NCBI GenBank assembly: GCA_002774795.1
Contig: PCYI01000001.1
Coordinates: forward strand, 12,116-58,604
Direction: 5' to 3'
Length of the DNA: 46,489 nt
Origin: Candidatus Vogelbacteria bacterium CG10_big_fil_rev_8_21_14_0_10_51_16
GTDB taxonomy: Bacteria; Patescibacteriota; Minisyncoccia; Phycocordibacterales; JACRKE01
Of this stretch, positions 3,917-22,897 are shown in pieces. Numbering within the stretch: position 1 is the stretch's first letter; every line of letters starts with the position of its first letter. The translations under genes and the position numbers were made by a program. Under the pieces are notes generated by a model that did no database searches, was not told the DNA's origin, and saw nothing but the letters and a program-made list of their open reading frames with translations.

Positions 3917-3987
3917 CAATCCTCTCCTCTCCTTTCCTTTGTCCTCTCTGTCCTCAATTTACTAGAAGCGTGCTAGGATTGTCAATC

Positions 3988-5424
3988 ATGGAGTTTTCGA
4001 TAGATAAAAAAGCACAAGGCGCTCTTGCTCGAGCCGGTATCTTGACCACTGGCCACGGGGTCATCAATACGCCCGCTTTTGTAACAGTCGGCACCAAGGC
4101 GACCGTGAAAGCCCTCACCCCAGAAGAGGTGGCCTCTCTGGGCGGAGAGGTGGTGCTCGCAAACACCTACCACCTATACCTCCAACCGGGCGACGAGCTT
4201 ATCTGCAAGTCGGGTGGTCTACATAAATTCATGAACTGGTATGGTCCCACCATGACCGACTCCGGCGGGTTCCAGGTATTCTCCCTTGGCGTAGCGCTTG
4301 GATCGGGAATCTCCAAACTCTCCAAGCCCTACGCCACGCAGATTACCGCAAATGTAGAGCGGATAGGCGCGGATAGAACCCCTCCACGCAATACCCTAAA
4401 AATATTCACAAATGAGCCCGCATCCAGTCCGCGTCAGTCGGCGTCTAGTCCGCAAATGTCCGTGGCGCACGATGGGCCAAAGTCCCTAGTGCGCATCGAT
4501 GAGGATGGCGTGACCTTTCGGTCTCACCTCGACGGCTCGAAGCATCTCTTTACGCCGGAGCGCTCGATGGAGATCCAGCACAATATCGGCGCCGATATCA
4601 TCTTTGCGTTCGACGAATGCACCTCCCCCACAGCATCCTATGACTACCAACGCGAAGCGATGGCCCGCACCCACCGTTGGGCAGAGCGCTCGCTCGCTCG
4701 CCACCGCGAGCTTGAAACAAGCGACCCCCTTCCATACACGCAAGCGTTATTCGGCATCGTACAAGGTGGCCGACACCGAGATTTGCGTGAAGAGAGCGCC
4801 CGTTTCATTGGCTCTCTTGCCTTTGACGGCTTCGGCATCGGTGGCTCTTTTGATAAGGCAGACATGGGAGACGCTGTCTCGTGGGTAAACAGACTCTTGC
4901 CTGAAGAAAAACCGAGACACCTTTTAGGTATCGGCGACCCGTGTGACCTTTTTTTGGCAGTCGAGAACGGTTGCGACCTCTTTGACTGTGTGGCCCCCAC
5001 CCGCCAAGCGCGCAATGGCTCTCTCTACACAGCACAAGGCCGCATCAATATCACGAACGCCCGCTATCGCACCGACCTTTCCCCTATCGACCCCACCTGC
5101 ACCTGTAGTGTTTGTACGGGTGGTATGCCCCATCCCCCGGCCGGGGGAGGGCTGGGGTGGGGTAGATCTTATGGTCCTAACCCATACCTTCCTTCGCAAA
5201 CTGCTTCACCAATCGGCATTAGCAAGATGTCCTACACCCGCGCCTACCTCGCCCACCTTTTTCGGGCCGAAGAGCTCCTCGCCTACCGCTTAGCCTCCAT
5301 CCACAACCTCCACTTTATTGTCAATCTGGTGAAAAAAATGCGCGCCTCACTTCTCAATGACACCTTCTTTAAGCTTAAAGAAGAGTTTCTGCAAACATAC
5401 GGCAATTCAACCACAAACCGATAG
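3988..5424 (+). CDS. tgt: Queuine tRNA-ribosyltransferase (tRNA-guanine transglycosylase) carrying two in-frame insertions
   Basis: MEFSIDKK...ARAGILTTGHGVINTPAFVTVGT, TDSGGFQVFSL, FAFDECTS, zinc motif CTCSVC...H, C-terminal IHNLHF. See findings for the insertions. Confidence 0.9.
   Translation: MEFSIDKKAQGALARAGILTTGHGVINTPAFVTVGTKATVKALTPEEVASLGGEVVLANTYHLYLQPGDELICKSGGLHKFMNWYGPTMTDSGGFQVFSLGVALGSGISKLSKPYATQITANVERIGADRTPPRNTLKIFTNEPASSPRQSASSPQMSVAHDGPKSLVRIDEDGVTFRSHLDGSKHLFTPERSMEIQHNIGADIIFAFDECTSPTASYDYQREAMARTHRWAERSLARHRELETSDPLPYTQALFGIVQGGRHRDLREESARFIGSLAFDGFGIGGSFDKADMGDAVSWVNRLLPEEKPRHLLGIGDPCDLFLAVENGCDLFDCVAPTRQARNGSLYTAQGRINITNARYRTDLSPIDPTCTCSVCTGGMPHPPAGGGLGWGRSYGPNPYLPSQTASPIGISKMSYTRAYLAHLFRAEELLAYRLASIHNLHFIVNLVKKMRASLLNDTFFKLKEEFLQTYGNSTTNR
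4404..4464 (+). repeat. Family D element (ATTCACAA head plus four GTCCGNN units spaced 10/11/10 bp) inside the tgt ORF, in frame
   Basis: Units start at 4427, 4437, 4448 and 4458. Alignable to the intergenic copy at 22478-22542; the four-unit array also matches 7346-7384. Confidence 0.65.
5128..5165. repeat. Family A palindrome core (reverse orientation) inside the tgt ORF, in frame
   Basis: CCCCATCCCCCGGCCGGGGGAGGGCTGGGGTGGGGTAG versus the reverse complement of the intergenic core, CCCCTCCCCCTGGCCAGGGGGAGGTTGGGAGGGGGTAG. Confidence 0.7.
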
Positions 5425-7302: not shown

Positions 7303-7345
7303 TTCCGCGTATAACTGCATAAAATCTACGCCGATCTGCAATTTC

Positions 7346-7384
7346 GTCCGCGTCCTGTCCGCGCTAATCCGCGTCTTGTCCGCG
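7346..7384 (+). repeat. Family D phased array: GTCCGCG x4 at 11/10/11-bp spacing
   Basis: Units start at 7346, 7357, 7367 (ATCCGCG) and 7378. The array abuts the stop codon of the 7386-7757 gene. Confidence 0.75.
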
Positions 7385-7385
7385 T

Positions 7386-7757
7386 CTACTTCTCCATACT
7401 CTTCCGGATGGCGGCCCAGTGCTTTTTCATATCGCGCACCATGGCTCGCACTTCATCTTTATCTACGTTTTTGAGATTCTCATACTTCTCACCCACCTTT
7501 TCCACGATGGCATCAAAGGTCTCTTTGTTCATCTCCTTCGCCTGCGCAAGACGCTCCATGACCTCCGCCTTAGCTTTCAGACCCCAGCTTCTGATTTTAT
7601 TTTTAGTCTTTGTATCTTGGCGCCCATAAACAAAAAGCGCTCCGGCCACCGCGGCCGCCGTAGCGGCCAAGGCAATAGCTCCCTTTTGTACTCCGCTTAG
7701 TTTTTTACTTGTCGACTTGCTGGCTGTCGTGACTTTTTTTGAGATTGATTTAGACAT
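7386..7757 (-). CDS. YtxH-like protein (N-terminal TM helix plus coiled coil)
   Basis: GAIALAATAAAVAGALFVYG helix, then a charged helical tail. Adjacent to a DUF948-like gene, as in Firmicutes (from memory). Confidence 0.55.
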   Translation of the reverse strand: MSKSISKKVTTASKSTSKKLSGVQKGAIALAATAAAVAGALFVYGRQDTKTKNKIRSWGLKAKAEVMERLAQAKEMNKETFDAIVEKVGEKYENLKNVDKDEVRAMVRDMKKHWAAIRKSMEK

Positions 7758-22440: not shown

Positions 22441-22466
22441 AGAAAGCCGCCCGAGGGCGGCTTTCT
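22441..22466. terminator. Hairpin AGAAAGCCGCC-cgag-GGCGGCTTTCT between the KH gene and trmD
   Basis: 11-bp perfect stem with A/T-rich flanks on both strands. Confidence 0.5.
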
Positions 22467-22504
22467 TTCAGTCATTATTACAATTCACAATATGGGCTGT
22501 ATTC

Positions 22505-22542
22505 GTCCGCGAGAGTCCGTTCCCTGTCCGCGTTAGTCGGTG
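22505..22542 (+). repeat. Family D phased array (GTCCGCG-type x4, spacing 10/11/10)
   Basis: Units start at 22505, 22515, 22526 and 22536, preceded by the same AATTCACAAT head as the tgt copy. Confidence 0.75.
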
Positions 22543-22561
22543 GCAGTTGTAGCCTCCCGGG

Positions 22562-22897
22562 CTACAACTGCAAATCCGCCATTGCCTCATCCACCGTCTT
22601 CATGGTAGGCACTGAGGCCCCTCCTTCTGCCGGAGCCAAGCGACCACCATCGGGCTCTTCTATCTTCAAGTTCACTCTCGCGTTGTACTTCATGCCAACG
22701 ACGCGCAAAAGAGTACGGACAGCCTTGGCGGTGTTGCCACTGCGACCGATAACCTTGCCCATGTCCTCTCGATGCACCTTGAGCGTAAGGAGAACGCCCA
22801 TTTCGTCTACCGAGCGATTGACGACCACTTCCTCTGAATGGTCCACGATGGCCTTAATAACATACTCTAAAAACTCCTGGTCCTTTTCTGCTGACAT
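22562..22897 (-). CDS. KH-domain RNA-binding protein (UPF0109/YlqC-like) with a C-terminal extension
   Basis: LEYVIKAIVDH...MGKVIGRSGNTAKAVRTLL. Start at MSAEK (22897). The longer ORF-track version reads through repeat family C. Confidence 0.85.
   Translation of the reverse strand: MSAEKDQEFLEYVIKAIVDHSEEVVVNRSVDEMGVLLTLKVHREDMGKVIGRSGNTAKAVRTLLRVVGMKYNARVNLKIEEPDGGRLAPAEGGASVPTMKTVDEAMADLQL

Follow-up and report, generated by a model that had tools for sequence, protein, structure and literature searches.

Why does an ultra-small bacterium carry sets of four G/C-rich hexamers, phased along the DNA helix, both behind genes and inside them? This question arises from a stretch of 46,489 nucleotides of the Candidatus Vogelbacteria genome CG10_big_fil_rev_8_21_14_0_10_51_16, which we call G000 here. 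The whole stretch, referred to as the window in the following, corresponds to C21:12116-58604 of the 958-kb, 30-contig assembly.

Phased arrays in the window

The window holds five arrays (Table 1), each composed of four TC(C/T)GCG units at a spacing of 10/11/10 or 11/10/11 bp. Three of them had been listed in the original prediction as arrays of the unit GTCCGCG, all in plus-strand orientation. When we re-read the sequence, the unit starts and spacings given for the three loci were all correct. The placements were correct as well: two arrays follow directly after the stop codons of a YtxH-like and a KH gene, and the third lies inside tgt. The list of loci had to be extended by two arrays, one at 7304-7340 on the plus strand and one at 4337-4374 inside tgt; the latter runs on the minus strand, and the common orientation therefore holds for the three listed arrays only. 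The heptamer itself describes half of the listed units, since GTCCGCG is exact in six of twelve (three, two and one per array) and the remaining six (TCCGCG, GTCCGTT, GTCGGTG, GTCGGCG, GTCCGCA and GTCCGTG) are off by one or two bases. Hence the real core is the hexamer TC(C/T)GCG, written TCYGCG below.

In number, the GTCCGCG heptamer is barely unusual in the window (14 occurrences vs 7.5 ± 2.7 expected, with 4 of 100 shuffles reaching 14). The degenerate four-unit pattern was found three times at 10/11/10 and twice at 11/10/11, vs 0.00-0.01 in 100 dinucleotide-preserving shuffles. There are no tRNA genes in the window, and neither the window nor ten array loci from other phyla gave a family match in Rfam.

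Table 1. Arrays and associated features. Positions without a contig number are those of the window; lower-case letters mark deviations from the core unit.
Feature	Position	Strand	Details
Host gene tgt	3970-5424	+	PF01702, match in three stretches
Left junction hairpin, tgt	4287-4336		arms 4287-4302 / 4321-4336; one mismatch in 16 bp
Left arm in tgt, inverted partner of array 3	4337-4374	-	aTCCGCG, aTCCGCt, aTttGCG, aTCTGCG; spacing 10/11/10
Spacer between the two tgt arms	4375-4415	+	ATTCACAA head, common to copy at 22478-22504
Array 3, right arm in tgt	4416-4464	+	degenerate lead unit at 4416, then GTCCGCG, GTCgGCG, GTCCGCa, GTCCGtG; starts 4427/4437/4448/4458; spacing 10/11/10
Right junction hairpin, tgt	4465-4494		distal GTGCGC, proximal GCGCAC abutting array
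Degenerate array, in tandem with and just upstream of array 1	7304-7340	+	TCCGCG, aCtGCa, TCtaCG, TCTGCa; spacing 10/11/10
Array 1	7346-7384	+	GTCCGCG, GTCCGCG, aTCCGCG, GTCCGCG; starts 7346/7357/7367/7378; spacing 11/10/11
Array 2	22505-22542	+	GTCCGCG, GTCCGtt, GTCCGCG, GTCgGtG; starts 22505/22515/22526/22536; spacing 10/11/10
KH junction hairpin	22543-22571		12-bp perfect stem
In-frame array in LepA, G000	C20:24250-24470
In-frame array in TsaD, G000	C20:14911-14948
In-frame array in GatB, G000	C30:7735-7772
Further in-frame arrays in housekeeping proteins, G000	C24:11363-11400; C13:10247-10297; C4:26019-26056; C18:37028-37802; C18:43686-43723
Second inverted '-+' doublet, G000	C19:329-366 / C19:399-436	- / +
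Nine RAYT-like Y1 (PF01797) genes, G000	C2:19789-20550; C2:37758-38447; C2:2790-3461; C9:7102-7779; C24:6786-7484; C8:15295-15984; C10:11877-12584; C19:10933-11646; C6 about 4110-4340
109-bp element, G178, three identical copies	C1:111246-111354; C4:30123-30231; C6:29677-29785

Arrays across the genome of G000

The genome-wide mapping that had been suggested gave about 21-24 arrays in G000 (16-24 by stringency in a core-based scan) and none in shuffles. Four units are the mode, and the dominant spacing of 10/11/10 is almost exclusive to the TCYGCG core. When we searched without bias for four-fold repeats of any 6-mer, 13-17 loci appeared at 10/11/10, 16 of 17 belonging to the TCYGCG family, and other spacings that are not multiples of 7 yielded 0-7 loci. 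The proposed helical phasing was borne out by these stereotyped arrays of a recognition-like core, with four units as the mode and 10/11/10 as the rule; the variable unit number and spacing of a simple minisatellite, named beforehand as the result that would speak against it, were not seen. The arrays of G000 also fall into sub-families that have position-specific variants in common, for example the first letters T,T,G,G together with a last unit GTCTGCG, which shows that the copies have a common descent and did not arise by slippage at each locus.

Inside predicted coding sequences we found 10 of the 21 well-defined arrays, in frame and in either orientation. As coding DNA makes up ~81% of the genome, coding copies are depleted (p = 6e-4) yet common. 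Their hosts include Tgt, LepA, TsaD, GatB and class-I aminoacyl-tRNA synthetases, and in TsaD the same loop is hit in the genomes G216 and G158 as in G000. We saw no promoter or positional bias of the G000 arrays, and the prevalence of single intergenic copies that are antisense to the flanking genes (6 of 8; 6 vs 2) was not significant (p = 0.29).

G000 is rich in other repeats as well. Tandem repeats of 7 bases dominate, with 167 loci of at least four units vs 0-13 for other periods, and this main 7-bp period is a repeat class different from the arrays. A second array family has a period of 11 bp and the unit AAGCACGAAAC / GTTTCGTGCTT (C2:17123, C9:39394, C9:93595, C14:14995, C18:22878, C18:76668, C18:83274, C29:21401-21516 and C4:31692), and might represent the arms of another type of the cassette described below. 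At C25:43705-43810, TTATCCAC-type boxes phased 11/11/10 lie beside a 10-bp GTGGTAT repeat, possibly marking a replication origin. The palindromes that accompany the RAYT-like genes of G000 (Table 1) are REPtron-like, and two of them have TTATCCACA (DnaA-box-like) outer arms.

Insertion sites and junction hairpins

Have the arrays been inserted into their present sites? All three window sites (tgt, KH and YtxH-like) are without an array in the nearest relatives. Array 1, a single arm, directly abuts the stop of the YtxH-like gene (7386-7757, minus strand), and the stop codon TAG sits in the last spacer of the array. Given this position of its stop codon, the protein seems to have been cut short by the insertion; its relatives, which lack the array, extend further by 10-15 aa of a basic C-terminal tail. 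Array 2, likewise a single arm, is located between the stop of the KH gene and a conserved terminator (22441-22468). In G001, G002 and G008 the array is absent and the KH gene, ending with ...ADLKL* in G001 and G002 and with ...EDLKI* in G008, runs straight into the terminator. The hairpin beside array 2 is made of a distal arm (22560-22571) that contains the last two codons and the stop of the KH gene, and an array-side arm (22543-22554) that is its inverted copy.

Inside tgt, the minus-strand array and array 3 form a gene-less inverted doublet, with array 3 translated in frame as EPASSPRQSASSPQMSV. The host arm of the left hairpin (TGGCGTAGCGCTTGGA) corresponds to the codons of the conserved SLGVALG, and the other arm (TCCAAGCCCTACGCCA) abuts the minus-strand array; on the right side the distal arm corresponds to the conserved Tgt codons L-V-R of LVRIDEDG. 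Compared with 80 metagenomic relatives, the Tgt loop that follows GGFQVFSLG is ~40 residues longer in G000. Three of these 80 relatives carry an array of the same family, but in a different Tgt loop, and no relative above 61% Tgt identity was found in metagenomes.

Such hairpins are a frequent companion of the arrays. Among 74 distinct arrays, 61% have a hairpin of -10 kcal/mol or stronger directly 3' of the array on the TCYGCG strand; 5' of the array the share is 13.5%, and in shuffles it is 9%. Each site has its own hairpin sequence. In all cases with a recognisable host, conserved coding sequence of the host makes up the distal arm, and the array-side arm is the reverse complement of it. 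Stems measure 12 bp at the KH stop region, 6+4 bp (right) and 16 bp (left) in Tgt and 16 bp in GatB; in LepA the left and right stems are 12/22 bp in G000, 11/12 in G150, 14/15 in G126, 17/18 in G158 and 12/19 in G132, and in RecG they have 9 bp in G169 and 11 bp in G141. The shared LepA site was compared across six genomes for co-varying junction copies. Host codons vary synonymously between genomes, the inverted copy follows, and the position of the loop shifts too. Because G063 and array 1 of the window are without such stems, the junction hairpin has to be regarded as frequent, not universal. Many junction loops are GNA triloops closed by C:G, which corresponds to d(GCGNAGC), a very stable mini-hairpin. 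No direct target duplication was seen; instead the junctions bear inverted copies of the host flank.

Arrays in other genomes

With up to two mismatches allowed, the degenerate four-unit pattern was present in 27 of 201 genomes of the class (26 of 159 genera), and the reversed pattern, used as a control, gave no hit in the 201 genomes. None of 40 relatives from the same family and order had an exact three-unit array. In most array-positive genomes we found '-+' inverted doublets with 0-19 bp between the arms. The two arms have cores and phasing in common but differ in their spacers, and hence the doublets are not simple palindromes. Three-unit (10/10) versions, mainly as '-+' pairs, occur in Acidobacteriota, Planctomycetota, Chloroflexota and Gemmatimonadota. 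Distant loci have position-specific variants and spacers in common, and this extends to genomes of different families. In G169 a recurrent palindrome, TTCCGCGGAGNCTCCGCGGAA, matches the array pattern by accident (C18:21871, C22:50294, C22:52017, C23:131906 and C11:9361).

One genome, G178, has 16 arrays, some of them in an unusual setting: a 109-bp element, present in three identical copies (Table 1), has 28-bp terminal inverted repeats (ACTAGTAC...) and a TCTGCG array inside. A copy with 94% identity is carried by G132, which belongs to a different family. Our search for an autonomous partner of the element gave only an array-less sibling with the same terminal repeats (G178:C1:84257-84381). 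As the array thus lies inside an element that also exists without it, arrays can spread as passengers. Terminal repeats of this kind were not found around the copies in G000.

GxxExxY nuclease genes between inverted arrays

In full-length copies, two inverted arrays bracket a gene of the GxxExxY family, PF13366 (PDDEXK_3) / TIGR04256 (E 1e-27 to 1e-37). A search for recurrent neighbour genes of arrays in other phyla had given the first pointer to this family, with two Chloroflexi loci being the only ones that had a gene in common. At these two loci the cassette layout surrounds a free-standing gene. In G158 an in-frame insert of LepA consists of a CGCAGA array, a domain of ~115 residues and a TCTGCG array, and G149 has the same layout inside another gene.

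We then looked at the nucleases themselves by sampling 30 PF13366 genes from the 201 class genomes. In most cases the gene lies between two mutually inverted arrays, each with 3-5 short repeats in phase; two of the 30 are without arrays. The flanking cores are of the TCYGCG type in ten cases, ATTCGTA-like in about eleven and ATCAGTG-like in three, the rest being other; the ATTCGTA-type arrays are the same design with another core. TCYGCG arms flank PF13366 genes in G063, G169, G150, G126, G056, G158, G052, G132, G141 and G149, and show the 2+2 layout of the window (10 bp within a pair, 11-12 bp between pairs).

On the nuclease tree, genes with the same core type group together (9 changes vs 15.9 in shuffles, none of 200 shuffles being as low). 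PF13366 is present in 14 of 27 array-positive genomes, compared with 34 of 174 array-negative ones (odds ratio 4.4, p = 0.001). As related genomes are not independent, the association is weaker than the Fisher test and the grouping on the tree suggest, and relatedness alone can produce the grouping. Support for the ATTCGTA clade is 99/98. Of the array-positive genomes, 13 of 27 are without PF13366, among them G178, and several others have only a nuclease of another core type. G000 itself has no PF13366 gene according to a family search, tblastn and a custom HMM. A weak tblastn match at C5 27771-27971 was rejected, not being a nuclease relic. As to the co-occurring DNA-binding protein that the original prediction had called for, the GxxExxY gene is a candidate in other genomes, where arrays bracket it and the core tracks its lineage, but G000 encodes none.

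GxxExxY/PDDEXK_3 is a very large family with at least 8,000 relatives in one search, and a 2012 survey of the PD-(D/E)XK superfamily lists the function of PDDEXK_3 as 'unknown'. Sequence comparison of the nuclease with the PDB returned only non-significant matches to T7 endonuclease I (E 0.1-0.6), and a profile search for the fold returned nothing relevant. The AlphaFold model was mediocre (pLDDT 63) and had no Foldseek match with E <= 0.001. Among 8.4 million papers we found no published description of phased arrays around GxxExxY genes, nor of TCCGCG direct-repeat arrays.

One shared site is the LepA loop before LNLIDTPGH. Five genomes (G063, G150, G126, G158 and G132) carry the cassette there in frame, and in G000 the same loop contains a much-reduced remnant without the gene, in which the junction hairpins of either side (12 and 22 bp) are present. 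This remnant, together with the lack of a GxxExxY gene in G000, marks its arrays as probable orphan arms. The LepA-resident nucleases of G150, G126, G158 and G132, which come from four host families, are 76-82% identical and form a 100/99 clade, compared with only 45-60% identity between the same genomes over the 250 LepA residues after the insert. Such a difference between insert and host speaks for horizontal spread and would be expected from repeated homing to one site; alternatively, it might reflect very strong constraint on the insert. The same LepA gene of G158 has a second, gene-less doublet downstream (L239, G158:C20, 1981-2060), which is translated as ...QGQRNSASSLRESAANA... In tgt of G000, the ATTCACAA head of the spacer might derive from the 3' end of a nuclease gene that has been lost (KIFTNE vs IVYDTAR), a resemblance that is only suggestive.

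Origin of the arrays

In our view the arrays of the window are probably orphan, gene-less arms of small GxxExxY cassettes. They are classed as orphan arms and not as a complete cassette because G000 is without a PF13366 gene, and their link to the cassette rests on the identity of design with other genomes and not on a local partner. A full-length cassette reads as a CGCRGA-unit array, a GxxExxY gene (PF13366/TIGR04256, PD-(D/E)XK-type) and an inverted TCYGCG-unit array. Each arm is built from two hexamer pairs, 10 bp apart within and 11-12 bp between pairs, which places four cores on one face of the helix. These cores are putative docking sites for the cassette's own nuclease, probably as two dimers per arm; such docking would fit the bracketing of a nuclease gene by the same design elsewhere, and the clustering of core labels on the protein tree may count as indirect support. 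Cassettes occupy intergenic DNA or, in frame, surface loops of conserved proteins such as LepA, RecG, TsaD, GatB and Tgt. On insertion, the junction hairpins might arise from fold-back (self-primed) synthesis on the 3' ends of host DNA, and where the gene was later lost, an inverted doublet would remain, tgt being an example, or else one arm alone, for which the KH and YtxH-like sites are examples. A more far-reaching proposal, which we regard as tentative and rather doubtful in its full extent, would see in GxxExxY cassettes widespread, undescribed homing-type selfish elements. Their nuclease would dock on four phased hexamers per arm, the elements would settle in frame and unspliced at conserved positions within essential genes, and insertion would copy the host flank by fold-back synthesis, with the arrays of the window as fossils.

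Could the arrays instead serve the genes beside which they lie? Iteron- or operator-type cooperative arrays, bound by a host DNA-binding protein that regulates or organises adjacent genes, would account for the helical phasing and the fixed number of four units, and the antisense position of six of eight single intergenic copies points the same way without reaching significance. Such a role, which the original prediction had in mind, is nevertheless very unlikely. The nearest relatives have no array at any of the three sites, so position is not conserved, about half of the copies (10 of 21) are translated inside genes, and a promoter bias is absent. The intergenic copies of the window are situated in 3' untranslated regions, from stop codon to terminator, and not at promoters, and not one exact three-unit array was found in the 40 relatives of the same family and order. 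Just as improbable, in our opinion, is that the arrays are REP/REPIN-type repeats mobilised by the RAYT (Y1 HUH) transposases of G000. With nine PF01797 proteins in 958 kb this had to be taken seriously, doublets do occur, and hairpins with GNA triloops suggest single-stranded DNA. However, what flanks each of the nine RAYT genes is a long palindrome of its own and in no case a TCYGCG array, and six array-positive genomes are without a PF01797 match. The association is weak (PF01797 in 21 of 27 array-positive vs 104 of 174 array-negative genomes), and the doublet arms, sharing cores and not spacers, would not form a REPIN hairpin.

Two further explanations concern the way in which the arrays came about. 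They might have been carried along by unrelated miniature inverted-repeat elements, or have been captured as filler when breaks were repaired, the link to GxxExxY genes then being secondary. The three 109-bp copies in G178, with an array-less sibling and no PF13366 gene in that genome, agree with the former, and the junction fold-backs resemble break repair. We consider this unlikely, as the copies of G000 have no terminal repeats of that kind, and as both the inverted bracketing of PF13366 genes and the tracking of the nuclease clade by the core would be left unexplained. A classical MITE was rejected, there being no direct target-site duplication and a terminal-repeat element with an array in G178 only. 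The chance that replication slippage made a minisatellite in place is close to negligible: although the units are short and in tandem and 7-bp tandem repeats abound in G000, the arrays have a fixed number of units, the spacing alternates between 10 and 11 bp without a uniform period, variants and spacers are common to distant loci and families, and three copies are identical over exactly 109 bp. Returning to the orphan-arm origin of the arrays, the ~21-24 copies of G000 are most likely inert, since no GxxExxY protein is encoded. Most likely they are functionless relics whose presence in 3' untranslated regions and protein loops is tolerated, without a regulatory role for the adjacent genes.

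Comparison with known systems

As far as their logic is concerned, the nearest published parallels of the cassettes would be NTS/Ssn, which seems closest, and REP/RAYT. In the NTS (dRS3)/Ssn system the hairpin repeat on both sides of a GIY-YIG nuclease gene is the one that the enzyme cuts, and hundreds of orphan copies exist (Chenal et al. 2025, PMC11893778). The cassettes likewise have a small nuclease gene with its cognate short repeat on both sides and many orphan copies elsewhere, the repeat variant tracks the nuclease lineage, and gene and repeat co-occur across phyla. They differ in that the nuclease is of the GxxExxY PD-(D/E)XK type and not GIY-YIG, that the repeat consists of 3-5 phased direct hexamers and not of a single hairpin, and that copies lie in frame in essential genes, with junction hairpins derived from the host. 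As in REP/REPIN-RAYT, the short repeats are dispersed and specific to the species, inverted doublets occur, the repeat flanks a single partner gene, and orphans far outnumber genes. Here, however, the partner is not a Y1 HUH protein and the doublet arms are complementary in their cores only.

The in-frame copies recall the Rickettsia palindromic elements (RPEs), small in-frame repeats in housekeeping genes of a reduced genome that are translated as surface loops. The cassette arrays, too, lie in frame in housekeeping genes of a reduced genome and are translated as loops, but RPEs are not known to have phased hexamer arrays, an inverted copy of the host flank or an associated nuclease gene. As with homing endonuclease genes and inteins, the same site of an essential gene is filled in distant lineages (LepA before LNLIDTPGH, RecG after DEQHRFGV), and the insert is more similar between genomes than the host gene. 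Unlike inteins, the cassette is without a splicing domain and thus remains part of the protein; unlike both, it has repeat-array arms and its gene-less derivatives persist. Several direct repeats phased by one or two helical turns and inverted between the ends are also a feature of the ends of Mu, Tn7 and IS21 and of parC of plasmid R1. The phased direct repeats of each cassette end and the mutual inversion of the ends resemble these transposon ends and iteron or ParR-type arrays, but the cassette has no DDE transposase, no partition or replication gene and no direct target duplication, and its units are much shorter.

In conclusion, the link between the arrays and the arms of GxxExxY cassettes would explain several phased arrays in ultra-small bacteria as well as the in-frame insertions in Tgt, LepA, TsaD, GatB and RecG. 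For annotation this means that such arrays should be masked as repeat remnants and not be taken for operators, iterons or origins. If the nuclease indeed recognises a short core on one face of the helix, TCYGCG, ATTCGTA, ATCAGTG and the further core variants would constitute a natural panel of sequence-specific DNA-recognition modules. The host-derived hairpins at the junctions, finally, point to a route of insertion or repair that has not been described for bacterial elements.
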